Positions 9,900-63,538 are shown, counted from the whole stretch's first letter. The stretch: DNA of 63,538 bases, filler included, from Conidiobolus incongruus B7586 (GCA_000697335.1; 7 parts of 7 records of this genome joined end to end with filler, not necessarily neighbours in it), one strand, 5' to 3'. Numbers and translations: made by a program. Notes: a model not told the origin generated them from the letters alone.

Positions 9900-9999
9900 N
9901 NNNNNNNNNNNNNNNNNNNNNNNNNNNNNNNNNNNNNNNNNNNTTAATTAATTAANNNNNNNNNNNNNNNNNNNNNNNNNNNNNNNNNNNNNNNNNNNN
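9900..9999. other. Assembly gap with artificial six-frame-stop linker (also at 17984-18083, 35488-35587, 50075-50174, 56931-57030, 62384-62483)
   Basis: An identical N-run/TTAATTAATTAA/N-run block of 100 nt occurs six times. Confidence 0.97.
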
Positions 10000-17324: not shown

Positions 17325-17983
17325 TTAGTATAGAAATTAAATAATAGCATAATTGTAAAATCAAAATTAAATAAAAATTTTAATATGATTTATAAAATAT
17401 ATTACAAAATATAAAGTTAATACTCACTTCTATTTTTGATTATTTTTTGCAATACTTTTGGCAAACTTCAAACACTTGAAAAATAATTTTTTTATTAAAG
17501 ACTGAAATTAATATTTTATGAACTAATTTAATTTATTTGCAAGAATGTTTTTCCTGCAAGTATATTTTTTAATTACCTAAAACAATTATAATCACATGGA
17601 TTATAGTCAGGTGAATATACTAGATATGGTAGTTCTTTCCAGTTTTTTATATAGAATATTTTTTATAAGTTTAACTTTATATATTTTATAATTATCTTGC
17701 AAAATAATAGATATTTTTAATTTATATTAAAAACACCATTTAGAAATTATTTTATTTAATAAATATTATAAAATCTACTATTTACTGTTTTTGTTTTAAA
17801 AAATTAAATAAAAAACTATATATTATTATAATATTTTATAATAATTAATATTTTCTTATTAATAAAATATTTTTTCACTATAATTTATAAACAAGATTAT
17901 TTTAATTCAATTTAATATTTTGTTTTAATATAGGTTAATAATTAAATAAAAAGATCTAAAATCTATCAATTATTATAATTTAT
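17325..17983 (-). mobile_element. Degenerate mariner transposon, 3' half with right TIR
   Basis: The minus strand reads NWKELPYLVYSPDYNPCDYNCFR*LKNILAGK and is colinear with 35100-35487. Terminus TA|TTAGTATAGAAATTAAATAATAGCATAATT. Confidence 0.8.
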
Positions 17984-24189: not shown

Positions 24190-24261
24190 CTCCGATACAG
24201 GGAATCGAACCCTGGCCGTCTCGGTGAAAGCGAGAAATCCTAACCACTGGACCATATCGGA
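24190..24261 (-). tRNA. tRNA-Glu (anticodon TTC)
   Basis: TCCGATA/TATCGGA acceptor stem, TCTCG-CTTTCAC-CGAGA anticodon arm, GGTTCGATTCC T arm and a T6 Pol III terminator ~11 nt downstream. Confidence 0.96.
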
Positions 24262-24271
24262 CTAGGAAAAA

Positions 24272-24803
24272 TTCGACAATTACTACCTGATTGACACCTT
24301 TTTTCACTCCAATTACTTCCCAGTTCCTGATTAACCAAGTTAGGCCTTATTAGCTTTTTCCTGGTTCACGTCCGAGTGACTTCACTGTTGCTCAATTGTT
24401 ACATACTAATGCCTGTATATTTCACTTATAAGAAGTGCTGGTTTCCTCCTTTTTGATTTCTGTCTTTCTTTACCTTTCTCCTTTTTTACACAAATAAATC
24501 TTTTGCCTATTTCCAAGGCCTTACCTTTAGTATATTCAAGCAGTTGCCTATAGTCCACTTGAGTCATCTTCCATTATTCATTCTTCATTTGTTCCTATTC
24601 ATATTTTGTGATTCCATATTTTTAACATGTCGGATCCTAAGGCCACAACTGTTGCTGTTGGTCTAGTCGCTCTTTACAATTCCCTATTTACAAGTGATCA
24701 TTGGTATTTTACCCCAGCTTGTAAGTGCCATGCTTCAAAATCTGCCTACAGAATGGCTGTGTCAATGTCCTCAATGACGCTCCAAGCGCTAATAGCCGTG
24801 ATA
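24272..24803 (+). mobile_element. Solo LTR (family T), 10 bp upstream of tRNA-Glu
   Basis: Colinear with the reverse complement of 53050-53607 along its whole length. TATAAG at 24427, a pyrimidine tract, AATAAA at 24493, end CCGTGATA (GTGACA in the other copy). Flanks are AAAAA/AAAGA. Confidence 0.8.
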
Positions 24804-25229
24804 AAAGACTAACATTATCGTTTAATCATGAAAAATACTATTCATTTCAACTTTAATCCATATTAACTAACAAATACAAACTTCTTAATTTCGAAATTAT
24901 TTTAAACTATTTTGAATTGTACTATTAACATTCAATTACAGCCAAATTCAAGTTTTAATTGTTCATTCAAATTTATTACTGTTTAATCAATTTGTTTTAG
25001 ATGCTAAAATTTGTTTACATTATTTCGTTAAATATTTAAATTAACAAATAAATAATGTAAAGAATTATAGACAAATTTTAACTGTGTATTGTTATTTTTA
25101 AAATTACATATATTATTGTTATTATTATTATAAAAGATGGAGAGATGAATATATTAAAATACTGATTTTATAGTGATGGAATATTTATATTTTGGTCGGA
25201 TTCATTGATTATTACAGGGAAGGTGAGAG

Positions 25230-33900: not shown

Positions 33901-34498
33901 TATATACTAATCAAAAAAATTAAAATAATACTAATAATAGCCAATATATATCAGTTTAATATATATAATATTTTGTAATAAATTATTTCATGAAAAAATA
34001 GTTAAGAATAAATGAATTTTAATTTTATATAGAGTAGATATTAAATTATAGACTATATTATAGAATTATTAACTTGAATGATTTTGAATAATGATAAAGT
34101 TTATATCAAAATATTTATACTCAAAATCCTTGATAAAAAAAGTAGAAATAATATTGATATTTATTATTAATTAATATAAAAGGCAAAGAAATTATAAAAA
34201 TTAAATCAGATTAACTAAACTAGTTCAATAAATAAATTACTCTATCGTTTTCTTATTTTAAAATGTTATTTCCTTTATCTTGCAAATTATAATTGTATTT
34301 TATATTATTTTAGTATTATATTAGTTTTATAATTCTGAATAAAATTAAACCAACTTATAATTTATAATTATTAAATTAAATATATGTAAAAAAATCATAT
34401 CTTTAAAATAAATATTTTGATAACTAAGATTTTATTATAATTTAGCTCAAAAATTTAAAATTCAAAATATAACTTTTTTAAAAATTTATAATAATATT

Positions 34499-34874
34499 TG
34501 TTAAAAGACTAGTTCTCTAAATTCTTACATATATTCATTTATAATTCAATTGACTATAAATTATATAACTAATTTATACTTTTATAAGTAAATTAACTTT
34601 ATTAATAGCATTGAAATATTTAATAAACAAGGTTCCTCTTTTTTCTTTTAATTTTTATAATCTAATTTTTTTATATTATTTCTTAGGTTAAAACTATATT
34701 ATATTAATATTATAGCATATTAGCACTACCTGATATAAATCCTAATATACTAGTGACTCATTTGTGTTTGAAGCTTAATTAAACTTTGTTTACATTTCCA
34801 TATTATATTGCCACATTATTTTAATATTAAGTCTTCCTTTATATTATTTTGGTATTATTACCATTATACTGATA
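34499..34874 (+). mobile_element. Solo LTR (Gypsy family G)
   Basis: Starts TGTTAAAAGACTAGTTCTCTAAA and is homologous to the copies at 46764, 49448, 57118 and 61960. Flanks are ATATT/ATATC. Confidence 0.8.
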
Positions 34875-35099
34875 ATATCTTTGATAATTTGATTAAAATT
34901 AAATTTAAAAATCAATTCATTTCTTTGAAATATATTGGTTTCTAATAGCAAATATTATTTGAGCATTATTTATTTTGTTTTAAATATTAATCAACAAAAT
35001 TAAACTATTTAATATTAAGTTTTTTAATTTATCCACTATTTTTCTTATTTCCAATTAAAGTAATATTATCAATTTAATATAGTTTTCAAATGTTATTTA

Positions 35100-35487
35100 T
35101 TAGTGCAGAAATTAAGTAATGGCACAATTTTAAAATTAAAATTAAACAAATAAATTAATAAATAATATATAAAAATTAATGAATAATATAAAATTAATAG
35201 CCTCCTTTATTATTAATAACTCTTTTCTATACTTTTGGTAAGCTTCTAATACCTAAAAAACAGTTCTTTTTATTAAGGACTGAAATTTGATGTTTCACAA
35301 ACCAATTTAATTTGTTTGTAGGAATTTTTTTTCCTGCAAGCTGTTTTTTTAATTGTCTAAAACAATTATAATCATATAGATTATAATCAGGTGAATATAC
35401 TAGATGTGGTAACTCCCCCCAATTTTTTTTATATAAAAAATCTTTTACAGCTTTAGCTTTATGTATTTTGCAATTATCATGCAAAAT
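35100..35487 (-). mobile_element. Mariner (DD34D) transposase C-terminal fragment with right TIR, cut by a gap
   Basis: LHDNCKIHKAK...ELPHLVYSPDYNLYDYNCF has 34 residues between the second and third Asp. Terminus TA|TTAGTGCAGAAATTAAGTAATGGCACAATTTT. Confidence 0.88.
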
Positions 35488-38400
35488 NNNNNNNNNNNNN
35501 NNNNNNNNNNNNNNNNNNNNNNNNNNNNNNNTTAATTAATTAANNNNNNNNNNNNNNNNNNNNNNNNNNNNNNNNNNNNNNNNNNNNGTTATCATTATTT
35601 AATCTTCAAATTAAACTGAATTATTAATAAATTTTATAATATTTTTTTAAATATAAAATTCTTTTAATATAATTTATCAATAATTATTACTCTATCAGAT
35701 AAATATAAAATATATATAAAGTTATAACAAATTTTGGAATTTTAAATGATAAGATAAATTACCTGATTTAATATATTCAATAGATTATAGCATATAATTA
35801 TAATTACTTTAGGTAATTAAAAAAATCAATTTTTATGAAAGAAAATTTTCATAAACAAATTTAATTGGTTGATAAAATATTAAATTTCGATTTAAAGAAT
35901 TGTTGTTGATTGTTAAAGGTTTGCTAAAAATATAAGAAAGCGTGATTAATAATAAAAGAGAGAGTTGATTTTGTATTATAAATTTATTTTTCAACTTATA
36001 TATTAAAATCTCTTTTCTTTTCTAATCTTGAAAAATCCTTATTATTTAAAAAATTTAAGTAAAAATTGGGTTATTCAAAATATAGTTTGAAAGATTTTAT
36101 AGTTAATTTAAATAATATCATCAAAATTAAATGTAAATTAGGTGAAATAATTAGCGTTATCAAATAAAAATCAAATTTTTTCAAATTTGAAAATCTACTA
36201 TCATATTTCAAAAGTTATAAATTATATAAAATTAATTTAAATAGCTGTACCAATCATTGATTATTATAGACTATTTATTAAATATATAAAAATATATTTT
36301 CCCTAAATGTGGTAATATCCAATAATTTATCTTAATTGAACTTTATTGTATAACTTTTTTTCCCAATATTATTCGATAATATAAATTTTCTGATCTCATA
36401 TATATTGTATTTTTAAATTTACTCAACCTATTTAAATATAAAATCGATCAATGATGTGTTGAAAATTATATATTAAGTCTGAGATGCAATGCCTCATCCA
36501 ATAACATAAATATGCTCCTTTAGCAATTGAATTTCAAAGTATCTATGAATTAATATTCTTAAAATATATCTTAAATTTGATTGAATACAAATGATTTCAT
36601 AATTACAAAATTAAGTTGAACCTGATCTATTTGCAAAATATCGATCAGCTCAATGCAAAAAATTCGATTGAAATGGAAATCATTAATATCCCAAATGGGT
36701 TTTTAATTGAAATTAAATTAGGATTAATAAAAGTTGATTGGTCCCACACCAAAATTGACTTTACTTCTTTATATAGATTATCTATTTACTAAATTTGTAA
36801 ATATCAAATATATTTGAATTATACAGTGTTTAAATTAAAATTAAGGTAGTATAGCTGAATTTAATGATATATATATTTATTAAAGATATTATATAACATC
36901 TATAAATCGACTCTGGTATTTTCCTATATTCCTCTATATCTCAGATTTATTAATATCTCAAACTTAATAAAACATTAACAATTTAATATGTTTAAAATTA
37001 TTAGTTAAATTGTAATATTCACCTCATCAAATTTTTAATTAATAATTTTCGATCGTTACTAATTTTTAGGATCGCCCAAAATGAAAACCATTTATTAGGT
37101 TTAATCGTAATTAAAGAAGATTTAAATATGGAATTTATCCTCATTTATGCTTTGATTAGAAACTAATCTCAAAATTATAGAAATAATTAAATTACTCATT
37201 TACCTTTGTTAGAGAAAAGCCTCTTAACAGTTTGCTGAACCTAGTCAGAGTCATTACTTTTTAATCGAAATTATATTTATTTTAAGACTTTATATTATAT
37301 AGTATACCAAAATAGTTTTTTCATATTAAAATAATATTCTAATAATTGAAACAATTAATTTAAATTCATTTTATCATTCTTATGTCATTTATCTACTTTA
37401 TTTTAATCCTCAAAATAACTCTAATTCCTTGATAAATTTAATAATCCAATTAACCAACTGAATCAAAAATAACAAATATTTAAAATTAATTTAATATCAA
37501 CTTTACAGCAATAATGTTCAACATTCATTATTAATAGGAACTGTTTTGGATTACTTTAATTAGTACTTCAAATTAATCAAAATATATGAATGATTTTTAT
37601 AATCAACAGTTCTTTATTATAAGATATTTAGTTAAATAAAAATCATCATAATTTTGATATATTTCACAATATATCATGTTTGCTAAAAGCATTCGAGTAT
37701 ATCACAATATTATCATTGTTCATAAATATAATAATAAAATTGAATATGTAAAAATACTTAGTATACTAAAGATCATCCCAGATTTTCAATTTAACAACAA
37801 TAAAACAGTTTGGAATACTTGATTTTTTAAGCTTTCAAAGCCCCAAGAATAACTTTGGATAAAAAATCTAATGACGTAGTATCTGGAAAAATAATTAACA
37901 ATGAACTTGAAATATATTCTGCAATGAATAATTTTACTAATTTAATAACAAATGATAGCTAGAGTGATTTGAGTAAAGAGCTGAAAGCACCATATTCACA
38001 TCATATTATTACCAAATTGTAAAATTAAATACATTATCCTCAATCAATATAATATGGATAGATAGACTATCAAAAATAAAATATATTTGAAATTATTTCA
38101 AACTAAATATTTCTAATATGCAAGCATTAAATATTGTGATAAATATTAAATAAATAATAATAATATATAACCGCAAAATATTTTGAGATATATCGGTTAT
38201 CAATATTATATTCTAATAACATATCAAAGCAACGTATAAACATAAATCAATATTAGTTTGATAAGTTACAATTTCAAATTATCAAATTTGAATCAAGAGA
38301 TCAATATAATCAATTTAGATCGAAAACAAATATAAAATATTTAAATATATGAAATATTTCTACATTTTAATACCCGATACAACGGTTGGAGCCCTAAAAG

Positions 38401-44800: not shown

Positions 44801-46763
44801 CTTAAATCACTTTATTTCAATGGCAAAAGTAATTAGAGTTTAATATCTTAGATTTTTAAACCATTATCAATTGGCCTAAACTTATAAAATTCCAAGAAAT
44901 AATTCAGATAAAAAATTTTATTCCCTTTGCCCCTTTTTGAACTTAAAATTTTATACCCTCCCATTTGAACAATTGAATAGAATATACCTGAATTTTATTG
45001 GATAATAAAAAAATTTTTTTAATATGAAAATTATAATTAATTAAAAGGGTTTTATAATTTAATTTTTTTTCGATCAATTGATTCAAATTAATTTTATATG
45101 AAATTATATGAGACAAATACTAAATTGAATTAATATTAAAATTAAACAAAATTTCTCAAATCAAACTATATTGAAAGAGTGAAGTTTATTGACTTAATAC
45201 TATCTCAAATATAGTTATTGAATATACAGTACTTATAAGTAAAACATATATTATAGAGCCCCAAAATTAATATTGCTGACCACAATGCAGTACAAGTGGT
45301 CAAAGAAGAGAATATATTTTTTCATTGGATTCATAACTTGTTTGGTAAAAGAGATAATTGACAAAAGGATTTTAATTGGCAATAGAATAATCAAGAAATC
45401 TAATAGTTTATCGATTTAGTATTTGATCATAATTTTCGATTTAGTTTTGCTAGAATTTTAATTTGAATCAGTTGATTTAATTTAGAATTGCTGTTATTTA
45501 TTGGTTTATTATTCAGTTATTATTTTAGTTAATTTGAATTATTACCTAATTTTTTGATTGAATCAATTTTTGAAATTGTTTTCAGACATTTTATGAATCT
45601 GTATCAGTGTATTTTAATATTTTCTCTAAGTATTACAATGAGATTTCAAATAAACCTTTAGTTATTATTGAATCAAATCCCAAGCTCAATTGAAAATTTA
45701 TTTTTTATTTTTTTTTCAATATCAAGTTTGTTTATTTTTAATATAATATAATTTAATAATATTAATAAAATTAATAATTTAACTATTATAGTTTGTTGAT
45801 AATAATAAGACCAAATATTATTGGATTATAAACAATTTGCTTTATTCACTCTATTCTTTGCAATATCTAAGCGACATTTTAACTTTCGTTTATTTAAGTT
45901 TTATTATATAAATATAGTTCTAGTATTTCCAATTAAATTCAAAATAAACAATTTTCGAATAGATTCATATTAAATAATCAATTCATTACACTCCCTTCAG
46001 ATAAATTATATAAAAAAATTTTTCTATTATTCAAGAATAGAACTAATGATTCTTAATTATTCATAAATATTAAATATTCAAAGTTAGTCACTCTACTTTA
46101 ATTATATAGTAGTAAAAAAATTATGAACAGTAGATAAAAGTTATTTTGGTCATAAATATTATAAAATCGCCTAACTTTATTCTAGTGTAGTATAGTGAAT
46201 TAATCCAAGCATTCTATCGATATTTGGACATAAATAAATTTAATAAGACCAAATATGTATATATGTCAAAAATTACAAAATTTCTTATATTATAAAGGAT
46301 ATTAGTTTATATATATATTTCAAAAATTAATATAAATTATTATATTAAAAAAATAAAAGTCAATTAATATGTTTTATATAATTAACCTAATTTAATTAAT
46401 TTTTAATTGAAAATAATATAAAAACAATTATTTATGAAAATAATAAATAAAAATATTATAATATTTGAAAAGTATTTTTATAAAAGATTATATTCAATAT
46501 ATTGATATTTAAAATATATATTTAGAAATAATATTAATTTTAATCAGACTTTCAAAATATTATAAATTTTTTATTAAAAATCCATACTATATATAAAATA
46601 AAATTTAAATTAATAATTTATTTAATTAATAAATATTATTATATTTTGATAATAAAATATTATTCATATAATTACAAATTATTTGTTATTTTTATAATTT
46701 AGTATATATTATCAAAAAATTTAATATTTTATTAAAATTATTTTTTATCTAATTATAAGATTA

Positions 46764-49447
46764 TATTAAAAGACTAGTTCTCTAAATTTTTATATATATT
46801 TTCCTATAATTTAATTAACTATAAATTATATGATTAATTTATACTTTTATAACTAAATTAATTATATAAATAATATTAAATTATCTAATAAATTAGGTTC
46901 TTCTTTTTTTCTGTCAATTCTTACTATTTTTTATCTTTTTCACTATTTCTATGATTGAGACTATATCTTAGTAGTATTATAGTATATTAGCACTACCTAA
47001 TATAAATCTTAATATATCAGTGACTCATCCCAGTTTGAAGCTTAATTAAATGTTATTTACATTTATACACTATAGCTATATTATAATATTATATTTTATG
47101 TTATATTATTTTTATATTATTTTTATATTAAATTTTCCTCTATATTATATTAGTATTTACCACTATATTTATATAGTAATAGTAATAAAATTATTAAAAA
47201 CTATTTGAAATTAATAATTACCTATATTAAATTTATTTATTATTATTTTAAATCCTATTTATAACTTATTTTATTTTAATTTAATATTATACATTATAAT
47301 ATCTCTAAAAAAAGAAATACCCTTATATTATTTTAATAATAATAATAGCTTAATTACTAAGTGAATCTAAGACTTTAGTCTTTAAAAGCTTATTACCCTC
47401 TAAAAAACTAATATTAAATAACTTTTGGTTAAGAAAAACATAGCTTCAAAAGTTTAAATCTAACAAACCAGTTATTTCATTACAGTTAATATATTAAACT
47501 ACCTTTTTAATATTTTTAAAAACAAATTAACCATTTATAATAGATTTAAAAACTTTTATAAGCTTGAAAACTATCTTAAAAATATAAAAAATGCCTTAAT
47601 TTAATTCCTGATGAAGATTTAAAAAATATCCTTAAATTAGTTATTTTTTTAGAAAAACTTATTTATACTCAGTATTTAACTTATTACAAGCTTAATCCTA
47701 AAGAGTTTTTAGGGGGATAACTTATTATAAGTATATAAACCTTTAAATAATTGGAAAAAGTTATAAAAAAAAGGTATTATTTAAAAGATTAAGTTTAATT
47801 AACAAGAGAAAAGCTTTCTTAACTTAAATAAAAAACTTTTATAAAATAATTGATTGAGAAATTCAATAAGATATATTTAAATATATTAAATATCACTAAA
47901 GAAGAATAAATCCACAACCTATTATAATATCTTAACTTTTAAATAAAACTTTAATTAATTAGCAAGGAATATATTGATAATATGTTTTTCTCTAATATTT
48001 ATAATATAACAATTATAATTGATAATATCTTTTACTCTATAACTAAATTTTTTATCTTAAGGATTACTCTTTTAAAATTTATTTTAACCCACTTAAATCT
48101 TAAATGATAAAAGTTTTTGCTTTAAAGCTTTATAAAAAAATTATTAATAAAAAAGTTAAAGCTTATTTAAAAATAAATAAAGGTTGTTATTATAGCTAAA
48201 GGATATAAATTAATTATAAAATTGATAAGTATCTTCTCAAAAGGTAATATCTATTTAATTTTCAATAATCTTAATTTACCAACTATAAATTAAACTTGAA
48301 TAATATTAATATCACCTTAAAATTACCTCTTTCATAATTAATTAACAGATTTTAATTTAATCCACAAAAATTTTAATAAACTAATGATTCTACAAATTAA
48401 ATTATTTATACTAAAAAGATTTAATTAATTAAACTACTAGAAACTAAAAATATTTTAGTAACTAATTTACCTTGTAATTTTTTACCTTTAACTATCACCT
48501 TGTTATTTTTTTTAACTAGATATTTTATAGATATACTTGTTAATATATTAATTAACTTTAGTTGTTTTAGTTATATTATCTCTTCTTTTATTGTTATAGA
48601 ATTATCTTTAGTTATTTAAAAAAACAGCTTAATAATTAAATATGCTAATAATTTAATAAAATAAACATTTAATATTATATCTAAATATTTATTATTATTT
48701 TTTAATTACTCTTAATATATTCAATTCATAATTAGTAATATAAGTTATAATTTTATACTAGGTTAAAATTAGTTTAAATATTATAGTTTTTTATCTATAA
48801 ATATTATTATAAAAGGTTACAAATCTATTTTTTTTATATTTTAAAAGAAATTAATAGAATTAATCTTAAAAAATTTATATTACCTTATTATAAAACTATC
48901 AAATATTTTATTTAATACTAAATTTATAATTATCTCAAATAATGTTATTATTGTAAGTAAAAACAAATATAAAAAACTAATTAAAAACCTTAATAATTTA
49001 TAAAGATATATATTTGTTTATTATTTATCTATTAATACTTTATTTGTTAATTTCAATAAAGTTATAACTAATAACTATTTCTTATATAATAAAGTAAGTT
49101 AATTTATTAATGTTTTTAAACTTCTAAGTAAATTACCTTTAAAACATAATATTAAATATAAAATTTAACTTCTCTTAAGTATACAACTATATTTAAAGTT
49201 TTTTTATCATTTATCTCTAAAATAATATCAAACTTTAAAAGAAGAAATCTAAAAATTATTTGAAAATGAATATATTAAACCTTCTTCCTTACTATAAAAA
49301 TCTCTTATTTTCTTTGTGTAAAAGGATAATGATAGTTAAAAATAATATATATATAATTGTGTTTTAAAGTCTAAAACTGTTAAGGATAAAACTTTATTAT
49401 TAAACCTATATGATATTAAAGATAAAATATTTAAATCTATTATATTC
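46764..49447 (+). mobile_element. Highly degenerate Ty3/Gypsy LTR retrotransposon (family G): 5' LTR 46764-47173, eroded PBS, gag-pol remnant up to the start of RT
   Basis: The LTR is homologous to other G copies and is followed by TAGTAATAGTA (eroded TGGTAGCAGCA). 49200-49430 reads YHLSLK*YQTLKEEI*KLFENEYIKPSSLL*KSLIFFV*KDNDS*K..YNCVLKSKTVKDKTLL, matching the Gypsy RT start (I.PS.SPW.SP.FFV.K.DG..R.C.DYR.LN..T.KD..PLP). Confidence 0.85.
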
Positions 49448-50074
49448 TGTTAAGAGACTAGTTCTCTAAATTCTTATATATATTTTTATATAATTTAATT
49501 AACTATAAATTATATGATTAATTTATACTTTTATAACTAAATTAATTGTATAAATAGCATTGAATTATCTAATAAACTAGGTTCCTCTTTTTTCCTCTCA
49601 ATTCTTACTATTTTTACTTTTACACTATTTCTAAGATTGAGACTATATTCTGTTGATATTGTAGGATATTGGCACTACCTAATATAAATCTTATATATAT
49701 TTTTATATAATTTAATTAACTATAAATTATATGATTAATTTATACTTTTATAACTAAATTAATTGTATAAATAGCATTGAATTATCTAATAAACTAGGTT
49801 CCTCTTTTTTCCTCTCAATTCTTACTATTTTTACTTTTACACTATTTCTAAGATTGAGACTATATTCTGTTGATATTGTAGGATATTGGCACTACCTAAT
49901 ATAAATCTTAATATATCAGTGACTCACCCTAGTTCAAAGCTTAATTAAACTTTGTTTACACTTGCACACTACAGCCATGTTATATTACCATGTTCTGTGC
50001 CACACTACTTTTATATTAAGTCTTCCTCTACACTATATTAGTTTAACTACCACTACACTTATATGGTAGCAGCA
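49448..50074 (+). mobile_element. Younger family-G 5' LTR (49448-50063, with an internal 217-bp tandem duplication) plus PBS, nested in the RT of the older element
   Basis: Starts TGTTAAGAGACTAG, with TGGTAGCAGCA at 50064-50074 directly after the LTR (initiator-Met-type PBS). The sequence then runs into a gap. Confidence 0.85.
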
Positions 50075-50973
50075 NNNNNNNNNNNNNNNNNNNNNNNNNN
50101 NNNNNNNNNNNNNNNNNNTTAATTAATTAANNNNNNNNNNNNNNNNNNNNNNNNNNNNNNNNNNNNNNNNNNNNTTATATTATAGAGTTAATTAATATAT
50201 AAATAAATTTTTTCAAAAAGGGATTTGAGTATTTTAATATTATTATTATTTAAAATGATAATTTAAAATAAAAATATTAGTATATATATAATTTAGTAAA
50301 AAAAAATTTAAATAATTATTGTTTTATATACCTTTTTAACTTATAAGCCTATAAATTTATAATTCATCTTATTTAAAATTTAAGATTTAATATATTAAAT
50401 ATAATTAAATAATATGTATTATAATCAAATATTATATTTTAATTTAAATAAATTTAGTTAAGAATTTTTTAAATTATTAGTAAATATATAAGGGACTTTA
50501 ATTTTATTACTTATTTTTGCAAGTTAGTATATATATATATATATATTTGGTAAATTATATATTATTTTTGATTTGAGGATAAATTAATAATAATAATTAT
50601 TTTAATAAATTTTTATATTTGATTAAGTATTTTATTTAAGATAAATATGACTTCAAAATACAATACATGAAAAAATTATTCTATTGCAATAATTTAAGCT
50701 ATTATATACAAAATGTAAAAGTATCATTGTATTGATTCAAAAATCTGAAGCCAATTATTTCTAATTTGTCCATTTTATAAGAAATATATCAATAACCTCA
50801 ATATATCAGTCATCATTTTCTCAAGTGAAATTATTTTGTTAATAAAATATAGATTATTATTAAATATTTTATTAATGTAATCAATAATCAAATACTGCAA
50901 AATATATATACTAAGTGATAATACAAATTATTAATAGTATCATCAATTCATTTATTATCACAAATAATATATT

Positions 50974-51117
50974 ATCAAATCCATATTTGTAAAAATTTTC
51001 ACCTTAGTTGCTTCTTTATTCCGCATGGCTATGGCAGTAACCGTGGTTGTGGCACCTACTCTCTTTGATACTAATTAAGCAGTTGGAAGTATTGGTTCTT
51101 CTAGAAATATTGTATAA
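50974..51117 (+). pseudogene. Pseudogene of the small secreted peptide family (paralog of 52034 and 54521)
   Basis: Reads (I)KSIFVKIFTLVASLFRMAMAVTVVVAPTLFDTN*AVGSIGSSRNIV*. ATC stands at the expected ATG and TAA at the conserved Gln. Confidence 0.65.
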
Positions 51118-52033
51118 ATCTAATTATAATCATTATATAGCAATCACTTTTCAACCTCATCCTTGCAAAATTCTGAAAATTAAATAAATTAAAATATAGA
51201 TTATCATATTACTTTCTTTGGTAAATTTAGAAATGCGGCTCTATAATAACATTCAATAGTTATGAATTTAAATATATTAAATTGATATATTATAAAGATA
51301 ATATAATCACAAATTTAATGGTATCTGATAAAAGTGTCCAATCACCTCATTTTGGTCATTGATTTATAGCGTTGAATACATCTTTGAAATTGCTTGGTAA
51401 TAATAGTGATTAGTAATAAAATGCATATATAAATTATATACTCACTATATTGATTATATATAAATTCATTAAGCTTTCATTTTAAACTACTCAGGTTAAG
51501 CGACAATTATTATATTATTAATTATAAATTTTGAAAGTGAAAATTGATATAAAAGTATAAATAAAAATTTTAGACATTTAATATCTTTCAATTTAATAAT
51601 ATTATTTTTTAATATTGCTATCAATATTTTTTTTATTTATAAAAGATTTTATGAAAAATTATCCATCAAGAATTTGTTATTTATTGTCCAGTAATTATTA
51701 CAGAATATCACAACTCAAATTATTATACCCTCATTTAATGAACTCATTAACTGCTAAGAATATAATGATAAATTAAATTATATATTGATTTAGGAAAATT
51801 CTAATAATTTGAATATAAAGTATATGATATGAAAGTTATATTACCGAATATTATCAATTCTAAGGAAATTTTATTTATAAAAACCGTTAAAATTTTTTTA
51901 ATAAAATAATAAAAATCTCCTTAAGATTTTTGTAGATGTGACAATTAGATTAAATTCAAATTGAAATATAAATGATTAAGTAATAAGAAAAGTTGTGATA
52001 ATTTTGAATTATTTAATTATTTAACCACTTATT

Positions 52034-52195
52034 ATGAATTTTGTAATTACTCAGATTTTTGTGTTTTTGCTATCGGCTTCAATTTGGTCATTGCCTACTG
52101 GTGATAGTTTAACTCCAACACTCTTCGAAGCTAAACAAGCTATTGGAAATGTATCAAGTTCTACAAATATTGTTGATAATTCTGGCGATTTTTAA
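52034..52195 (+). CDS. Small secreted peptide precursor, 53 aa (below the ORF-track cutoff)
   Basis: MNFVITQIFVFLLSASIWS-LPTGDSLTPTLFEAKQAIGNVSSSTNIVDNSGDF*: a signal-peptide-like N-terminus plus a core shared with 54521-54853. Confidence 0.75.
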   Translation: MNFVITQIFVFLLSASIWSLPTGDSLTPTLFEAKQAIGNVSSSTNIVDNSGDF

Positions 52196-52965
52196 AGTTG
52201 GATATTAAAATCAATTATTTCTTATTAACTATGATTTTTTACATCGGTATCATAATATTTCAACAATCCTTTATTGAGTAATAAAATAATAGGAAAGTAT
52301 TAATAACATATTTGCGTTATATTAATTTTCTTATTAATATGGCTGATCAAAATTTTGATATTGAAATGATACAGTTGATATTATTCAACTTGGTCTATTA
52401 TATTTTTGTTGATACTTTTTTAATAATGAGATTTTACAATATTTTATTATTCTTTCAAACTTGAATATTGATAATTCACTTAATTTTTTGGACCAAATAC
52501 TAATAAAAATTTAATATATTTGAAAAAGCTATGATTGTATATTTAAGTATTTTTTATTTCTAATCTTTAGTGCATCATATAAGGATTCAATTAGTTTGCT
52601 AAATTCTATTAAATTTTAATTCTCCAAATTTCATAACTTGGAAATTTGATAAAATTATCTAAATTATTTTTCAAGTATAGTTGATATATACCATACATTA
52701 AATATAAAAGAATTATATGTAATATATTACTTATTGATTATTGGAAAAAATTAAGTTGTTCAAATTTTGAAATTATTGAAGTTTTTATGGTATTGAGAAC
52801 TCTAGGATTGTAAAATAACATGATTTTTATAATATATTAAGTGTTATATAATAAGAATAAAATAAGATAAGATAAAGAAACAGAGGTACATTTGAACCTA
52901 AAAAAGTTGTTGTTAAAAAAGGTAGTAAAAAATTAATAATGAAACAATTATTTAAGTATCAAAAA

Positions 52966-53039
52966 TGCTCCCAACAGGGATCAAACCTGTGACCTTGGCG
53001 TTATTAGCACCACGCTCTAACCAACTGAGCTATGGGAGC
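52966..53039 (-). tRNA. tRNA-Ile (anticodon AAT), with a T-loop C56T variant
   Basis: GCTCCCA/TGGGAGC acceptor stem, TAGCTCAGTTGGTTAGAGC D arm, TGGTG-CTAATAA-CGCCA anticodon arm, T loop TTTGATC and an immediately following T5 terminator. Confidence 0.92.
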
Positions 53040-53049
53040 CTATTTGAAT

Positions 53050-53607
53050 TGTCACGACTATTAGCTCTTGCAGCGTCATCTAGGACACTGACACAGCCAT
53101 TCTGTAGGCCAGATTGTGAAACATGACACCTACCAGCTGGGGAAAACAACCGATGATCAGGTCTCTGGCTATTTGGCCTTGATCACTTGTAAATAGGGCT
53201 TTGTAAAGAGTGACTAGACCAGCAGCAACAGTGGTGGCGTTGGGATCCGACATGCTAATAAGATGGAATTGAGGAATATTAATAGGAATGAACTTAGAAA
53301 GAATAGTGTAAAATGACTCAAGTGGGACTATAGGCAGTTACTTGAGTATACCAAAAGGGCTGGTTTTGGAAGTAGGCAAAAGTTTTATTTGTGTAAAAAA
53401 GTAATGTAAGAGAGTGAGATCAAGAGGAGGAGACAAATCCTTCTTATAACTAAGTGAAATATATAGGCATAAGTATGCAATAGCTGAGTAACAGTGAGGT
53501 CACTCTGATATAGACTGGTAAAAGTTGATGAGGCTTAGTTTGGTTAATCAGGTACTTAGTAGTGAATTGGAGTGAGGAAAGGCATCAATTAGGTAGTAAT
53601 TGCCATG
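53050..53607 (-). mobile_element. Solo LTR (family T), 10 bp upstream of tRNA-Ile
   Basis: Homologous to 24272-24803 in the opposite orientation, with TGTCAC at 53050 and a perfect flanking TGAAT duplication at 53045-53049 and 53608-53612. Confidence 0.82.
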
Positions 53608-54520
53608 TGAATAATTTAATAAAACAAGAATACTTATAGATTTTAAGATAATTTATTACAAACAATAATATTTCTCATCATAATCTACTTTATTTTAATA
53701 CCAATTTGTTTCATTTCCATTTTATATTACATTCATAATATTTTAAAAATTTTAATTTTTTTTCAATTCTATTAATCTAACTTATTAATTTTATACATGA
53801 AAAATTTTAAATTATATTTATATAATATTAAATTTCTGGTTAATCTATTTATTCACAAATTTTTGAAATCTATAAAATCAAATATTTCAAAATTTAAACT
53901 CATAAAAATTCTGATTTTGCATAATACTATATATTATGTAAAAGTAATTATTTTATTCATAGATTTTTATATTATAGCTTGAAAAACAACATGCTAAGTA
54001 TTAAATCTAAAAAAAAATGACAAAAATCAAACATACATTATAATTTAGTTAGAAAAGATAATTCCTTATTTAAAATGGCTCGTATGCTGCTCAAATATAT
54101 ACTGAACAAAATTATTATAATTGAATATATTATCAACTGACGAAAATCTTAAAAAATAATTTGAAAAATATTCTTATTTAGTATAATGTTATTGATTTTC
54201 TCAATTTCTAGAATTATATCAACAATCCACAATTTTAATGTACAAGAGAACGAAGTAATATAAAGAATATAAGTTTATGGAAAATTTCATTCTAGTTATT
54301 ATTAAACAATAGTACTGTTAGATATATCATAATAATTCTCATAAACTGTCCATTATAAACGAATTGATTTTATATGATTATATTCATTGATTACGACTTC
54401 ATATTCAAACTGTCAGTTTGTTGACGAGTTAGATAATCTGCAAATTGATAGTCATTTCACAATAATATAAAAGAATTGGTTAAAAGCTTTAAATCACTTA
54501 TTTTGAATCTAAATCTGGCC

Positions 54521-54853
54521 ATGGTTTATATTTGGATAACTATCCATTTAATTTCGAGTATTTTGAGTGCGCCTATGCCGAATCCTGGCGGCATAATTCC
54601 TGAACTGTTTGGTGCGAAGCAGGCGACGGGTAATATTGGTGGCGCTACCAATATTGTTAACAATTCGGGACCTACCTCTCCTAGTGGGGCTCAATTCCTC
54701 CCACCGCCCCCTATGATGTTCATGCCTCAGCAGCAGCCTACTTTCTTTATTCATGATGCTAGCACTGTGCAGCCTCACGGTCCTCTCACTGGATTGAATT
54801 CTGCTTCTTTGAATGATCCTTTGCCCAATCCTGCCCCGCCGATGTTCTTTTAA
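54521..54853 (+). CDS. Small secreted protein with the conserved AKQA core and a Pro-rich tail (110 aa)
   Basis: MVYIWITIHLISSILS-APMPNPGGIIPELFGAKQATGNIGGATNIVNNSG...PPPPMMFMPQQQP..., a GC-rich coding island in AT-rich DNA. Confidence 0.8.
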   Translation: MVYIWITIHLISSILSAPMPNPGGIIPELFGAKQATGNIGGATNIVNNSGPTSPSGAQFLPPPPMMFMPQQQPTFFIHDASTVQPHGPLTGLNSASLNDPLPNPAPPMFF

Positions 54854-55511
54854 ATAGATTATCATATTGCATTTTCTAAGTTCATAATTTTTTGCGTTAG
54901 TTTCTTTGAAATAAAAACCATCATATTCATATCATTCAAACTATTTTTAAATATAATAACCAATTGTTATCTAATAAAATATCAAGTAGTGATATTAAAA
55001 TTGATTATATTACTATCAATGCAATATTAGTGCACTCTTTCTTTCAAATAATCAGAATAAAATTAAACCCATAGATGATTATAAACACTAATAAACAAAA
55101 AATTAGAAAATAGTCAATACAAGTCAACAAAGATATCAATATAATTCAATATCCAAGGTTATTTTAAATATTATATAAATTAACTTAATCATATATTATT
55201 TTAAAAGATATTTAATATTATTTAAAATCGAAATGATTTATTATAAAAAAACTATTCAAAATTAAATAATTATAGAAACTATATAATATTAATATAATAA
55301 TTCAAGTTAATGAAATTTTAACCATTTTATTAAGGTTCAAATTTTTAATATTATATTAATTGATTGGTAATTCATTAATAATTTTTTCGATTTTAGATTG
55401 AATATATAGGATATTTGAATTAAATAGTATAATTATAAAAAATAGATTTGATAATAATAAATAATCATTTAATGCAAACTATAATATATAAATTGCTTAA
55501 CAGTAGGTGGG

Positions 55512-55994
55512 TTACATGCCATTCATAATTTCCGAAGTTAATTCATCGGCATCATTGGGTCCAATTTGTTGTTTAGCAGTCGCAACTGAAGAGAGCAATC
55601 TTCGGACGAGAGTGTCGTGGGGACCTTCGTGACGTCGGTTTAATTGAGAAGCTCTTCTGCGGTGTCGTGCGTGGCTATTGTGACCTCCATTATGGCCGTC
55701 GTGACGATCTTCCTGTCGACGTTCCAAGGAAATGGATCTTTTGGCTTTTGCAGTGTCGTGGGGACCATCGTGACGTCTACTCAATTTCTTGGCTTTGCTG
55801 TTGTGGTGATGGTGGTGATGGTGATGGTGGTCGTGCTGTCTGCGCTCAAGGTTTACAGATCTCCTGGCAATATTAGTATCGTGAGGGCCGTCATGACGTC
55901 TGACCAATTCAGCGTCTAGCTTATATGGTAGTGAGTGAGCTTCAGTAAAGATCAAATTAAAAATCAAACTCAACAAAATAGTTTTAAATTGCAT
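55512..55994 (-). CDS. Secreted His-rich Kex2-processed repeat protein (KEP-like peptide precursor)
   Basis: Signal peptide, multiple RR/KR sites, three H[DE]GPHDT units, two S(V/I)xLERR spacers and a His9 tract. Confidence 0.85.
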   Translation of the reverse strand: MQFKTILLSLIFNLIFTEAHSLPYKLDAELVRRHDGPHDTNIARRSVNLERRQHDHHHHHHHHHNSKAKKLSRRHDGPHDTAKAKRSISLERRQEDRHDGHNGGHNSHARHRRRASQLNRRHEGPHDTLVRRLLSSVATAKQQIGPNDADELTSEIMNGM

Positions 55995-56402: not shown

Positions 56403-56930
56403 CAAGAAGCGGAAACCACACCTAATCTTGAGCTCATTCCTTCAAAGAGCGTGAAACCACTTTGAAAAAAAAAAGAAGAGAGAAGCAAAACACATCCAAC
56501 TATACAAACGATGCCCTCTATCAACGAGGACCCGGCTAGGAAGATAGCCCCCCCGACACCCCCGGATCCGAATATCCAGAAACAACCCAATCAAGCAATG
56601 ATGTCGTACGCAAAAATTCTTGCAGCAGCAAACGGTAAGTTACCCTTCTCTACTACCGCATACTCCCTTGTTTTTGACGTCTCTAAATTTTCGTTCTCAG
56701 ATATTAAATCGGAACAAACCGATGCTATCCCTTTAGATGTACCTTTCAACAGTTTGAGAAACGCCATCATTCGCTCATACATTCCCTTAGGGGCCTCTTC
56801 AGGCCAATCTAGAATGGCAAGCAGATTAATTGAAGTGGGATTCAAAAGTCTTGAACACAGAAATAATGCCATGCACCAAACCTACAAAGTTGAAGGCATC
56901 GAGATAATCCCCAAAATCACACAAGATCCA
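56403..56930 (+). mobile_element. Probable non-LTR retrotransposon (L1/Tx1-like) ORF1 5' portion, cut by a gap
   Basis: An abrupt rise in GC content. The open ORF has PPTPPDP, SYAKILAAA and RLIEVGFKSLEHRNNAM..YKVEGIEIIP, resembling the RRM-like region of LINE ORF1 proteins. No RT is visible. Confidence 0.55.
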
Positions 56931-57030
56931 NNNNNNNNNNNNNNNNNNNNNNNNNNNNNNNNNNNNNNNNNNNNTTAATTAATTAANNNNNNNNNNNNNN
57001 NNNNNNNNNNNNNNNNNNNNNNNNNNNNNN

Positions 57031-57792
57031 AATAATAATAAAATATATAAAATTATAAAAGAATTTATATATAAATAACTAGATAATATTTCCATATATA
57101 ATATCTTTAATATATTATATTAAGAGACTAGTTCTCTAAATTCTTATATATACTATATAATTCAATTAACTTTAAATTATATGGTGAATTTATATTTTTA
57201 TAATTAAATTAATGATATAAATAGCATTGAATTAGATAATAAACAAGGTTCCTCTTTTTCTCTCAATTCTTATTATTTCTTATTTTTATATTACTTCTAA
57301 GTTTGAAACTACATTCTGTTAATATTATAGTATATTGGCATTATCTAATATAAATCTTAATATATCAGTGAATTATCTCAGTTCGAAGCTTAATTAAACT
57401 TTGTTTACATCTGCACACTATATCCCATGCTACCTCGCCATGTTCTGTGCTATGCTACTCCTATATCAAGTCTTCCTTTGCATTATATCAGTATTGTACC
57501 ACCATGTTTATATATTATATCCTATATAAATATTATTATTTTAAATACTTAAAGAATATAATTATAAAAAAATTCCTTCAAATAAATGAAATTTGTTTAT
57601 AAAATATTAAATTTAAGTTTTTAATAAAAAACTATTATTAAAATGTTAAAATATGTTAAATTTATAATAAAGAGTTAATTATAATAAAAAAATATTAATT
57701 TTATATATTATATTAATTTTTTTATATTATACATAAATAAGTTTATTTATTTTTAATTTTAAAATTATACAAATATTTAATTTTTATACTAA
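57031..57792 (+). mobile_element. Degenerate mariner 3' part interrupted by a solo LTR
   Basis: 57560-57794 aligns with the reverse complement of 35098-35335, ending AAAATTATACAAATATTTAATTTTTATACTAA|TA. 57031-57050 resembles eroded DNCKIHK codons. Confidence 0.7.
57118..57512 (+). mobile_element. Solo LTR (Gypsy family G) nested in a mariner
   Basis: TATTAAGAGACTAG start, homologous to other G LTRs, with flanking TATTA/TATTA. Confidence 0.82.
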
Positions 57793-58833: not shown

Positions 58834-61443
58834 ATGTCATCTTTAGATCCTATAGAATTATTACAATGGAGTTTTATAACTCAACAAAATATGCCAGTAC
58901 TAGATTCTGATATATCGAAATACGAACTAGTTAACGAATTGAGTTCTTTGTTAAAAGATGGCAAATTTTTTGAAATTATTTCTAATCCTGTATTTAACTT
59001 TGTATACTCTCAAATCCCTGCCGATGAGAGTATTAAGCAAATTGCTGATAGTGTGAATAAGGAAGATGCTACCATTACCGAGACTTACATCCAGTTGAAG
59101 GCTTACCAGCTCCACATCAGCGGAGCCATTAAGACCTGGGTCAATGAAGATAATATCCATCACATTTTGATGTTGATTTTGGGTATTGCTCTACTAAATT
59201 TTTTCGTTCAAGTTGGTTGGACAGGTCCCGAAATGAGTAAGGAGCAAGCTGGAGAACTTTCACAACTTTTCAAAGTGATTTACCCTAATCCAGAAGATTT
59301 TTCTGCTAAGAGATCCAATACAACTGATGCTATCCTTAGAGATTTTTCTGTAGAGGGTGAAGATGCTTACCATTTGACTTTATATCCTGCTATGTTGTGG
59401 TATTCTGAAACTATTTTGAGTGTCCTGGCCCCCCTTGGATTGGCCAAGAGCTCTAACTGGTGGTTAAGCCGTGCTTTATTTTTCAAGCAACGTTTATTAG
59501 ATAACCCTACCGAAACTTTGAAAAATACTATATATAACCTTTTGAAACCTTTTATTGATTCTTTACCCACTTTGGAGCCCACTCATCCAGATTTTGAATT
59601 ATTTTCCGATTTGGGATCTCGTCTCTGGATTGAATTGGGTCTTCACAACCATTTATTTTACCAAGATCAACAAGCTGTTGAATGCTACGATCGCTCTAAA
59701 GATTGGAGTGGTCTCGAATACCAGATTACTGGTGCCCTGGGTAAGCGAACCAAATACCAGCAAAGAGATATCAGTCAGCTCGTTTTGTGGGCTAAAAGTA
59801 GAAAAGCTGGCGAACAAACTGAAAAACCCAAGCTTCCAGAGACTCTCCCATTGAATGATGATACCCTTATGGAAAATATTAAATTTGCTGAAAATCAAGA
59901 AGATGAAGAATTCCAAAAGGAAATTTCTAATCCTTCCTCTTTGGCCAAGATTGATCAATGTATCTTGTTGGCTTACTGTCTCAATATTAAGAATACTAAC
60001 CCTGATCACGGTATTACCAACGAACAGATGTTCCCATATGTCACTAGAGTTTTAGCTCATCCCAACAACTGGATGATTCATACCATGGGTTTAGTTTTGA
60101 GATCTCGTTTGGAAAGCACCAAATCCAGAACTGTCGAAAGATCAGTATTCCAATTACAAGCTTTAGTTGATCAATGGAATGTTACTGACTCTCAAGTCAC
60201 TGAAAGATTGGAGCATATCCATTCCCTCTTACTCCCATCTAAATGGGAAATGGAAAAGGAACTCGCTGAAAGATTCATGTCTCTTGGTATCATCAGATCA
60301 GCTCTTGAAATTTACCAAAAGTTAGAATTATGGGAACAAGTTATTAACTGTCACTTGATGCTTGAAAAAGAAGATCACGCCATGGCTGTGATTGAAGAGC
60401 AACTTGCTATCAATCCCAACTCTCCCAAATTACTCTGTCTCAAGGGTGATGCTACCGAAGATCCTACATGGTACCACCGCGCTTGGGATATTTCTGGTCA
60501 GAGATACTCTCGTGCTATGAGATCTCTTGGTAGCTACTACTTCAAGAAGGGTGAATACAACTCGTCCGTTGGTTGCTTCATGAAGGCTTTGACTATCAAT
60601 CCTCTCTTCGAACACTCCTGGTACCTTTGTGGATGTGCTGCCATGCAATGTGAAAACTATGAAATTGCCGCTCAAGCTTTCCGTCAAGTCATTTCCATCG
60701 ATGACGAAAATGCTGAAGCTTGGAACAACTTAGCTTCCATTTACCTCAAGATTAATCAGAAGAAGGAAGCCTTCCTCGCCTTCAAGCAAGCTTTAAAGCG
60801 CAAATACGAAAACTGGAAGATCTGGACCAATTACATGTATACCAGTTTGGATATGGGGTATATTGGCGAAGCCATCCGCGCCTTTGAAAAAATCGTCGAT
60901 CTCAGATGGAAAGACGCCAAGGAAGCTTGTGTTGACCAGGAAATTTTAGGTATTTTCATTAATGCTGTCCTCAACGACACTCCCGACGCCAAAGGTCAAG
61001 GATCTGCTAGATATGCTGCTCAGCTGGAGAGTTTGATCAAGAACACGATTTTGACGAGAATTGTCGCAGATGCTGGCATTTGGAAGCTGTATGCCAAATT
61101 GTTGCTCAGTAACAAGCGTTATGCCGAAGCTTTGGACTGTCAGGTTAAAGCTTACAGAACCATCTCCCATAAAGCTGACTTATTGACCAACCCTGTATCC
61201 TTCCAAATCGTCAGTGAAAGTTTAATCGAATTGGTCGATAGTTACCAGAGCTTGGGATCTCAGCCCAACCCCACACCAGAGAACCCTGACGCTGTAGTAT
61301 GCCCCGACTGGAACTATCAATCCCGCATGCTACTACGAAACTTGATTGCCAAGACTAAGAACACCTACGAAGGGGAACATCACCACAATTTGTTGGTCAA
61401 TGCTTTAGAAGAGTTGCCTCCCGCCAACAAAATTCAAAAATAA
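58834..61443 (+). CDS. EMW1: TPR-repeat protein, TTC27/Emw1 family
   Basis: ITGALGKRTKYQQ..ISQLVL, LNDDTL, NWMIHTMGLVLRSRLES..SRTVERS..QLQALVDQ and TPR repeats (AEAWNNLAS, ENWKIWTNY). Confidence 0.92.
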   Translation: MSSLDPIELLQWSFITQQNMPVLDSDISKYELVNELSSLLKDGKFFEIISNPVFNFVYSQIPADESIKQIADSVNKEDATITETYIQLKAYQLHISGAIKTWVNEDNIHHILMLILGIALLNFFVQVGWTGPEMSKEQAGELSQLFKVIYPNPEDFSAKRSNTTDAILRDFSVEGEDAYHLTLYPAMLWYSETILSVLAPLGLAKSSNWWLSRALFFKQRLLDNPTETLKNTIYNLLKPFIDSLPTLEPTHPDFELFSDLGSRLWIELGLHNHLFYQDQQAVECYDRSKDWSGLEYQITGALGKRTKYQQRDISQLVLWAKSRKAGEQTEKPKLPETLPLNDDTLMENIKFAENQEDEEFQKEISNPSSLAKIDQCILLAYCLNIKNTNPDHGITNEQMFPYVTRVLAHPNNWMIHTMGLVLRSRLESTKSRTVERSVFQLQALVDQWNVTDSQVTERLEHIHSLLLPSKWEMEKELAERFMSLGIIRSALEIYQKLELWEQVINCHLMLEKEDHAMAVIEEQLAINPNSPKLLCLKGDATEDPTWYHRAWDISGQRYSRAMRSLGSYYFKKGEYNSSVGCFMKALTINPLFEHSWYLCGCAAMQCENYEIAAQAFRQVISIDDENAEAWNNLASIYLKINQKKEAFLAFKQALKRKYENWKIWTNYMYTSLDMGYIGEAIRAFEKIVDLRWKDAKEACVDQEILGIFINAVLNDTPDAKGQGSARYAAQLESLIKNTILTRIVADAGIWKLYAKLLLSNKRYAEALDCQVKAYRTISHKADLLTNPVSFQIVSESLIELVDSYQSLGSQPNPTPENPDAVVCPDWNYQSRMLLRNLIAKTKNTYEGEHHHNLLVNALEELPPANKIQK

Positions 61444-61621: not shown

Positions 61622-61900
61622 TTAATACAGAAATTAAATAAAACAATTGATATATGTTTATAAAAATTAATTCTCTTTATTATTAATATTTCTTGACTAT
61701 ATCTTTAATAAGCTTCTAATACTTAATAATTCTTTTTATTAAAGACTGGAATTAAATATTTTATAAAGTGGTTAAATATAATTGTAAAAATTTTTTCTTA
61801 TAAATATATTTTTTGATTACTTAAAATAATATTTATTATATATGTTTTAATTTAGATTATATATTAAATTTGATTATTTTGAATTTTTTTTATTTTTATT
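61622..61900 (-). mobile_element. Degenerate, internally deleted mariner 3' end
   Basis: TIR-like TTAATACAGAAATTAAATAA, and AAGCTTCTAATAC...TTTTTATTAAAGACTG matching 35240-35283. The inner boundary is approximate. Confidence 0.6.
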
Positions 61901-61959
61901 TTTAAATATATTATAAAATTTGAAGAATTAATTCTATATGATATATAAGGGAATTAATA

Positions 61960-62323
61960 TATTAAAAGACTAGTTCTTAAAATTTATATATATATTCCTA
62001 TATAATTCGTTTGATTATAAATTAATCAATTTATTAATATTTCAAAGATAAATTAATTATATAAATAATATTGAATCATCTAATAAATTAGCTTTTTTCT
62101 CTCATTTTTTATTTTTTTATTATTTATAAAATTAAGACTAAATTCTGTAAATATTATAATATATTGGCATTTATCCTAATATATCAATATTGACTCATTT
62201 ATTTATAAAGCTTAATTAAACTTTGTTTATATTTCCACATTATATTGTCATGTTTTGTATCACAACACTTTTATATTAAGTCTTTCTTTATATTATATTA
62301 GTTTATTCATTATTATACTTAAA
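61960..62323 (+). mobile_element. Degenerate family-G LTR
   Basis: TATTAAAAGACTAGTTC start and the shared AAGCTTAATTAAACTTTGTTTA block. No clear TSD. Confidence 0.75.
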
Positions 62324-62536
62324 ATATATATATATATTAATTTTTAAAAAAAATAGTTAATTGATAAAATAAATATTTTATATNNNNNNNNNNNNNNNNN
62401 NNNNNNNNNNNNNNNNNNNNNNNNNNNTTAATTAATTAANNNNNNNNNNNNNNNNNNNNNNNNNNNNNNNNNNNNNNNNNNNNTTAATAATTATTTATTT
62501 TTAATTTAAATCAAATTATATTAAACTATATAAATA

Positions 62537-63538
62537 TTATCTTAAATTTAAAATAATGGGAAATTTTTTAATTTCCAATTTTTCAAATATATTATTAATT
62601 TAAAATAAATAAATATATACAAAGTTAATAAAAAATTAACTTTTTAAAGTTAGTTATTTAATTATCCTTGAATCAAATAGTAATCATCAAAAGTTTTTTA
62701 TTTTAGTATTAATAAAACTTAACTATAAGCTTTTTAAAATTATTTAAAATTTACAAGTAGATTTTAAAAATAAAGTATTACCTAAATCAATAATTTATTA
62801 CTAGGTAAATTACTTTAAAGCTAAAAAAGAAATTATCTAAAACTTGCTAAAATCTAAAAAATTAACTTTAACTATCATTTTTTTAAATATTAATACAGTA
62901 AAAAAATATATTGAAAAATATCTTTTTATTTCAGTTAAAGAATTATCTAAGCATTTTAATATTTGTTTTATAAGTATTTTATATATATTAAAGTTTAAAC
63001 TCAAATAAATAAATAAAAATATAAAATAGGTAATTTATAATTTAATTAAAATTTAAAAAAAGTTGGAATAGTTAATATTAAACAAAACTTACTAAAATAT
63101 TAATAGAAGCTTAAACTTTTACATTAAATAATTATAATTGATGAATCTTAAATATTTATATATAATCCTTTATCAAAACATAAATTAAGATATTAAATTA
63201 AGCTAAATCAACCCCCTTTACAAATCCTTTTAAATAAATATTTTTTAAATAAGTGAATATTAATCATTATAATAGATTATAATATTATATGTTATTTTTA
63301 CTTAGTTCCTGAAAGAAAATTAATTAATAGTAAACTCTATATTAATTTTTTTAAATAAAAGTATTTTTAATTAATGTTTTAAATATAAATTAAGAAAAAT
63401 TATTATTATGCATAATAATTATAAAATATATAAATTTAAAACTATAAAAAACTTTCTAATTAGAAATAACTAGAAAAAACTATTATATCTAGTATATTCT
63501 TTAGATTATAACCTATATAACTATAATTGCTTTAGGCA
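62537..63538 (+). mobile_element. Degenerate mariner, left TIR through the catalytic domain, truncated by the window end
   Basis: TA|TTATCTTAAATTTAAAATAATGGGAAATTTTT, IIIIDES*IFIYNP at ~63128-63170 and MHNNYKIYK...LVYSLDYNLYNYNCFR at 63408-63536. Confidence 0.8.

Follow-up and report, generated by a model that had tools for sequence, protein, structure and literature searches.

A tandem family of small, cysteine-free, predicted secreted peptides with a conserved 24-residue core in a Conidiobolus genome

Background

The closest described systems are summarised here from the available portions of the papers cited. Among the species of Conidiobolus are pathogens of insects and opportunists that infect humans and animals (PMC9391592); few genetic tools exist for it, and 125 putative GPCRs are counted in C. 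coronatus (PMC12387763). The small secreted proteins (SSPs) of zygomycetes are predicted to be secreted, are shorter than 300 aa and carry no digestive-enzyme domain; 2,222 of 3,066 shared groups lack Pfam similarity, and few groups are common to related taxa (PMC9391592). Among secreted fungal precursors, KEPs are abundant in Zoopagomycota and consist of internal repeats with KR, RR or KK sites between the units and X-Pro dipeptides of the Ste13 type (PMC6339444, PMC7329392), Ste13 itself preferring XP and XA dipeptides (PMC6339444). The Rep1 repellents of Ustilago maydis are secreted peptides of 34-53 aa, cut from one repeat precursor by Kex2, and form amyloid fibrils on hyphae (PMC3133707), while hydrophobins are small secreted fungal proteins, often surface-active, with eight cysteines (PMC13514795). 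In plants, the secreted peptide ligands PIP, CLE, CEP and IDA belong to multigene families whose precursors are laid out as a signal peptide, a variable spacer and a short, conserved, Cys-poor stretch of about 13 aa (PMC4154866).

The genes compared with these systems lie in a window of 63,538 nucleotides, the whole stretch of DNA that was analysed, which is AT-rich eukaryotic DNA carrying fungal genes for a Zn2Cys6 factor, a glycogen debranching enzyme, NOC3 and a TPR protein. The TPR protein (869 aa, 58834-61443) is 85% identical to that of Conidiobolus coronatus, 52% to that of Entomophthora muscae and 46% to that of Neoconidiobolus thromboides; the source organism is therefore close to C. 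coronatus, yet distinct from that reference.

Three copies of a small gene

An earlier note on this DNA described three loci as a same-strand tandem family of small secreted peptides with a common core. Retranslation confirmed the coordinates, plus-strand orientation and translations of all three, and their features are as follows.

50974..51117, plus strand: copy A, a pseudogene, collinear with B (Pro28 aligned with Pro28)
51055..51114, plus strand: decayed core of copy A
52034..52195, plus strand: copy B, an intact single ORF of 53 aa, predicted to comprise a 19-aa leader and a 34-aa mature peptide
52034..52090, plus strand: predicted signal peptide of B (hydropathy), cleavage IWS/LP, with five candidate sites satisfying the -3,-1 rule
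52115..52186, plus strand: 24-aa conserved core of B
54521..54853, plus strand: copy C, an intact single ORF of 110 aa, with leader, X-Pro spacer, core and Pro-rich tail
54521..54568, plus strand: predicted signal peptide of C (hydropathy), cleavage ILS/AP, with two candidate sites satisfying the -3,-1 rule
54599..54670, plus strand: 24-aa conserved core of C
54671..54850, plus strand: 60-aa Pro-rich tail found in C only, predicted by AlphaFold to be unstructured

Copies A, B and C are real paralogues. A tblastn search of the window with B returned C (E 1.7e-10) and A (E 6.3e-7), with the next-best match at E 0.18, and the local alignment scores of the three pairs (92 for B-C, 70 for B-A and 56 for C-A) were reached by none of 5000 shuffles (z 10-16). 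The mature parts alone also stand clear of shuffles (z 17.3 for B-C and 11.5 for B-A). No match between the copies was found by blastn, and the likeness is thus one seen at the protein level. Run against a six-frame translation of the window, a profile built from the three cores recovered the known copies (51, 48 and 35 bits) and then fell to 0.0 bits, returning no fourth copy inside the window.

The description of copy A as a pseudogene holds: it lacks a start codon at the position matching the start of B, its core is interrupted by an in-frame stop at 51076-51078, and a 2-base gap opens after residue 47 when it is aligned with B and C. Contigs from two of the four runs (X1 record 1 and X3 record 19) cover the region with no differences; the sequence of copy A is therefore no assembly slip.

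Codon usage was rejected as coding evidence. Although 35 of 37 non-coding ATG frames score below B, A and C, other frames score alike, and the score thus reflects G+C only. TATA-like hexamers occur at -71, -67 and -55, a weak signal given that 17% of background 26-base windows contain one. A 127-codon open frame lies antisense to copy C (54548-54931, minus strand); it is probably a shadow frame, since the selection signal sits in the plus frame.

Purifying selection on the core

The cores of B and C are identical at 16 of 24 residues and 45 of 72 bases, and for these two copies the proposed consensus PxLFxAKQAxGxxxxxxNIVxNSG stands; copy A, which agrees with B at 11 of 19 comparable residues, departs from it. 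Base identity between the B and C cores by codon position is 18, 20 and 7 of 24, and 11 of the 16 identical residues are written with different codons. The earlier note had made its proposal depend on purifying selection acting on the core, and the substitutions bear this out, with pS 0.90 against pN 0.20 (Fisher p 3.2e-7). When the 27 mismatches were placed at random, as under neutrality, 2 trials in 100,000 retained 16 or more identical residues. Translating this DNA in its other five frames yields 5-11 identities. The core boundaries were set by eye from similarity, which somewhat flatters these figures; even so, the core is rejected as a neutral DNA duplicate.

Upstream of the core, the N-terminal parts of B and C have 3 of 26 residues in common without gaps and a few more with gaps. 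The B-C core is thus under strong purifying selection while leader, spacer and tail drift freely. Synonymous sites are saturated, indicating that the duplication is old and that the core is the part selection retains. Between A and B the core gives pS 0.48 and pN 0.26 (p 0.2), a non-significant result of the kind expected from a decaying copy.

Further copies in the contigs

The contig comparison covered 50600-52700, the region of A and B, in four runs that represent one sample. In all four runs a separate contig aligns without gaps to 50977-51019, differing at 8 of 43 bases. A start codon precedes this match in run X1, and the frame, read by hand, continues VMA/IPASDS, in exact register with IWS/LPTGDS of B. 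The N-terminal stretch of this contig thus reveals a fourth paralogue, which lies elsewhere in the genome and not inside the window. Together with one dead copy and purifying selection on the core, it agrees with the birth-and-death mode of evolution suggested earlier.

There is also a hint in the contigs of a second, near-identical DNA copy of the core-coding stretch alone. In X1, a contig of 75 bases aligns to 52117-52185 at 3 differences, and the contig bearing the 3' part of B begins at 52117 in all four runs. As far as 52185, the extra depth roughly equals the depth of B's own contig in three of the four runs and is double it in X1, although contig depth is no copy number and the figures are those of the contig records listed. 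The single listed difference between this second core and B is synonymous (third position of codon 38). The second core could represent an allele or a paralogue, perhaps the fourth copy itself.

Searches for relatives

Homologues were sought in protein collections, PDB, Pfam, NCBIfam, and metagenome and viral contigs. A word-indexed search of 5.8 billion proteins, confined to lengths near those of the queries, gave no candidates for B and two for C, neither of which scored. HMMER against 1,835,955,588 protein representatives produced five matches, all of which were rejected as summed weak matches in repeat proteins (Ig-like, ankyrin and HYR; best single stretch 7.6 bits). For B and C there were no matches in PDB, no Pfam families at E up to 1 and no NCBIfam families. 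The best ESM Atlas scores (0.77 and 0.79) fell inside the shuffle range, and a TrkH label was rejected. None of 504 pattern matches in metagenome contigs and none of 156 in viral contigs was confirmed, and exact matches to the degenerate pattern in metagenome contigs numbered zero.

No homologue of B or C was found in the annotated proteome of C. coronatus, part of the collection searched; orthologues are consequently absent there, too diverged for so short a query, or unannotated. None of five window proteins looked up in the protein collection, a housekeeping one among them, was present. In the literature searched, the four 7-residue core motifs were not found, nor was the family as a topic, judged by titles and the openings of abstracts; these genes or orthologues of them may already appear in the secretome tables of related papers (e.g., PMC8588673 and 10.1101/2023.09.13.557621). 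Copies B and C are an orphan family with no homologue in the collections searched, in keeping with the first impression that they belong to no recognised family.

Genomic setting

The cluster lies in AT-rich, repeat-rich, gene-poor surroundings, with each copy forming a G+C-richer island amid DNA of 14-21% G+C. Pfam analysis of 17 window proteins returned housekeeping genes, transcription factors and a transposase remnant; neither a 7-TM protein nor a linked gene for a receptor, processing enzyme or modifying enzyme was among them. The window has six scaffold gaps (9900-9999, 17984-18083, 35488-35587, 50075-50174, 56931-57030 and 62384-62483), each a 12-base spacer between two 44-N runs, and the gap 800 bases upstream of copy A could conceal a further copy.

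Several repeats were observed in the window. A pair of about 550 bases (24277-24804 and 53049-53602, the latter between B and C) is 76% identical (E 3e-108), and its members lie 15 and 9 bases upstream of tRNA-Glu (24190-24261, minus strand) and tRNA-Ile (52966-53039, minus strand), which are both tRNA genes of the window; repeat orientation relative to the tRNA is opposite at the two sites. One member has TG...CA ends, there is no clean target-site duplication, and by analogy with Ty3 the pair resembles solo LTRs left by a retrotransposon that targets tRNA genes. A second dispersed AT-rich family (34338-34878, 46597-47196, 49393-50068, 57064-57572 and 61955-62372; 69-88% identity) includes a 217-base tandem duplication (49467-49916, 99% identity) adjoining an assembly gap. 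A DDE_3-type transposase remnant (35227-35535, minus strand) was matched at E 1.5e-4, under the curated cut-off, and has related fragments at 17314-17982, 61631-61851 and 63125-63538. A G+C-rich ORF of 140 aa (56511-56930, plus strand) enters an assembly gap and has no Pfam match; that it is the first ORF of a retroelement is a guess.

Potential functions

Copies A, B and C very probably form a real family of secreted peptides. Each of B and C has one short hydrophobic N-terminal stretch (10-residue hydropathy 2.7 in B and 2.0 in C) and, judged by hydropathy and a -3,-1 rule scan, these leaders likely direct secretion. AlphaFold confidently places a helix at residues 2-18 of B, in the leader. 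The predicted mature chains begin with X-Pro dipeptides: LP in B, AP-MP-NP (three dipeptides) in C, and IP in the paralogue outside the window. The mature chain of C has 94 aa, of which 19 are Pro. Both proteins have one N-x-S sequon and no Cys, so that the core is Cys-free as first described. No dibasic pair (KR, RR or KK) was found in mature B or C or flanking the core. The roles offered earlier were signalling, effector activity and a place at the cell surface, and none of them is demonstrated.

The preferred reading, which we hold tentatively and at somewhat below an even chance, is that the core is a short binding ligand acting outside the cell, a signal for the fungus's own receptors. 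Duplicated small Conidiobolus genes would encode secreted precursors built around the 24-residue selected core. The hydrophobic leader would take the precursor into the secretory pathway and be cleaved off before the X-Pro dipeptide, and the X-Pro dipeptides could then be trimmed by a dipeptidyl aminopeptidase of the Ste13 type, B releasing a peptide of about 32-34 aa and C a tailed form. The ligand's partner, at a guess, would be a GPCR or another membrane receptor of the fungus. The lack of Cys in the core and its net charge (-1 and 0 in the two copies) were counted in favour of this reading, as were the selection on the core against divergent N-terminal parts, the layout in common with plant peptide-ligand precursors (PMC4154866), the preference of Ste13 for XP and XA dipeptides (PMC6339444) and the 125 putative GPCRs of C. 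coronatus (PMC12387763). Several observations stand against it: no receptor, processing or modifying enzyme is linked to the cluster in the window; with no dibasic site beside the core, removal of C's tail is left unexplained; the B and C leaders have no basic n-region residue; and the core is about twice the length of the 13-aa PIP1 peptide (PMC4154866). In the available part of PMC12387763, GPCR expansion is interpreted as host sensing and not as self-signalling. The annotated C. coronatus proteome is blank, though a developmental signal might be conserved there and small genes may lack annotation. That the family represents peptide hormones of an early-diverging fungus, in CLE/PIP-like precursors without Kex2 repeats and sensed by the orphan GPCRs of Conidiobolus, is an analogy that we regard as doubtful; if true, it would add a fungal peptide signalling route beyond the pheromone and KEP types.

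The surface-film and effector readings are close rivals of the signalling reading. It is possible, if rather unlikely, that the core is a self-assembling surface module and that the peptides polymerise on conidia or hyphae like the Ustilago repellents, with the Pro-rich tail of C displayed. At 34 aa, mature B falls inside the size range of these amyloid-forming repellents (PMC3133707), G, N and S account for 38-42% of core residues, the cores have little charge, and an uncut tail on C suits a structural role. Neither core is more strand-periodic than chance, the hydrophobic moment being reached by 1340 and 1132 of 2000 shuffles, while the helical moment is mildly higher (reached by 333 and 250 of 2000). 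AlphaFold places a helix and not strands at residues 26-42 of B, at low confidence (pLDDT 53-59; pTM 0.30), and gives mature C no regular structure (pTM 0.16). The beta-aggregation offered earlier thus finds no specific support, although an amyloid would be compatible with these results. A further objection is that the repellents derive from a Kex2-cut repeat precursor (PMC3133707), unlike B and C.

An effector role, aimed at insect or animal host cells or at rival microbes, is unlikely. It would suit the pathogenic habits of the genus and the large share of zygomycete small secreted proteins predicted to be effectors in the portion of PMC9391592 available, as well as a cluster in which copies are born and die within a repeat-rich, gene-poor stretch. 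However, the core is conserved and not diversifying over a duplication that saturated synonymous sites, it resembles no family searched, and it lacks Cys and contains a single basic residue. Effectors are often disulfide-stabilised and antimicrobial peptides cationic, and the B and C cores differ from both.

That the products are translated but not secreted (for example, as small membrane-anchored or ER proteins), or that the family is decaying with expression lost, is quite improbable: secretion is predicted by heuristics, copy A is dead, and selection between paralogues records past and not present activity, but B and C are intact, each has its N-terminal hydrophobic stretch with a small-residue cleavage site ahead of X-Pro, the same site recurs in register in the outside paralogue, and the listed difference of the near-identical second core is synonymous.

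Comparison with described systems

The identities of hydrophobin, KEP and repellent were each rejected for B and C on the defining features of those classes. Hydrophobins have eight cysteines and B and C none (PMC13514795). The KEPs, in the available parts of PMC6339444 and PMC7329392, share with B and C the layout of a secreted fungal peptide precursor, predicted in the case of B and C, and the X-Pro dipeptides, and differ in their internal repeat units and the KR/RR/KK sites between them; B and C have one core per ORF. The same difference separates them from the Rep1 repellents, which they approach in the size of mature B (PMC3133707). A separate ORF of 160 aa (55512-55994, minus strand), convergent with copy C and without a Pfam match, starts with a leader resembling a signal peptide and contains repeats bounded by RR/KR (three HDGPHDT-type units and two of S[VI]xLERR) as well as a His run, with 22 His in all; it fits the KEP layout and possibly encodes metal-binding peptides.

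The plant PIP, CLE, CEP and IDA precursors and the B and C genes have the same layout, with signal peptide (a predicted one in B and C), variable region and short Cys-poor domain in a multigene family, and differ in that there is no sequence homology, the conserved domain is about 13 aa against 24, and the core of C lies mid-chain (PMC4154866). No motif of the SGPS type occurs in all members, an SGP triplet following the core in C and none being present in B. The core of C runs into SGP-x-SP-SG (54665-54685, plus strand), which is reminiscent of plant 'SGP-rich' peptides in the portion of PMC4154866 available; B has no such stretch, and the likeness is probably coincidence.

The class that B and C fit best is that of the zygomycete SSPs. 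Both are below 300 aa (53 and 110 aa) and have no digestive-enzyme domain or other Pfam or NCBIfam match. A signal peptide without a further membrane segment is suggested by hydropathy and the -3,-1 rule, although neither leader has a basic n-region residue. Relative to the SSPs described in the available part of PMC9391592, B is unusually small and Cys-free, and in B and C selection is seen on a short core. Among plentiful and mostly untestable zygomycete orphan SSPs, the family thus offers a defined 24-residue unit that is marked by selection and cheap to synthesise. Should the core be a ligand, it would open peptide signalling and orphan GPCRs of Entomophthorales to study; should it instead form surface assemblies, the repellents would have a counterpart that is free of Cys. 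Without a function, the family is one more orphan. As it stands, B and C are an orphan addition to the Pfam-less SSPs of zygomycetes, of which there are thousands of groups, and the plant precursors are like them in layout only.
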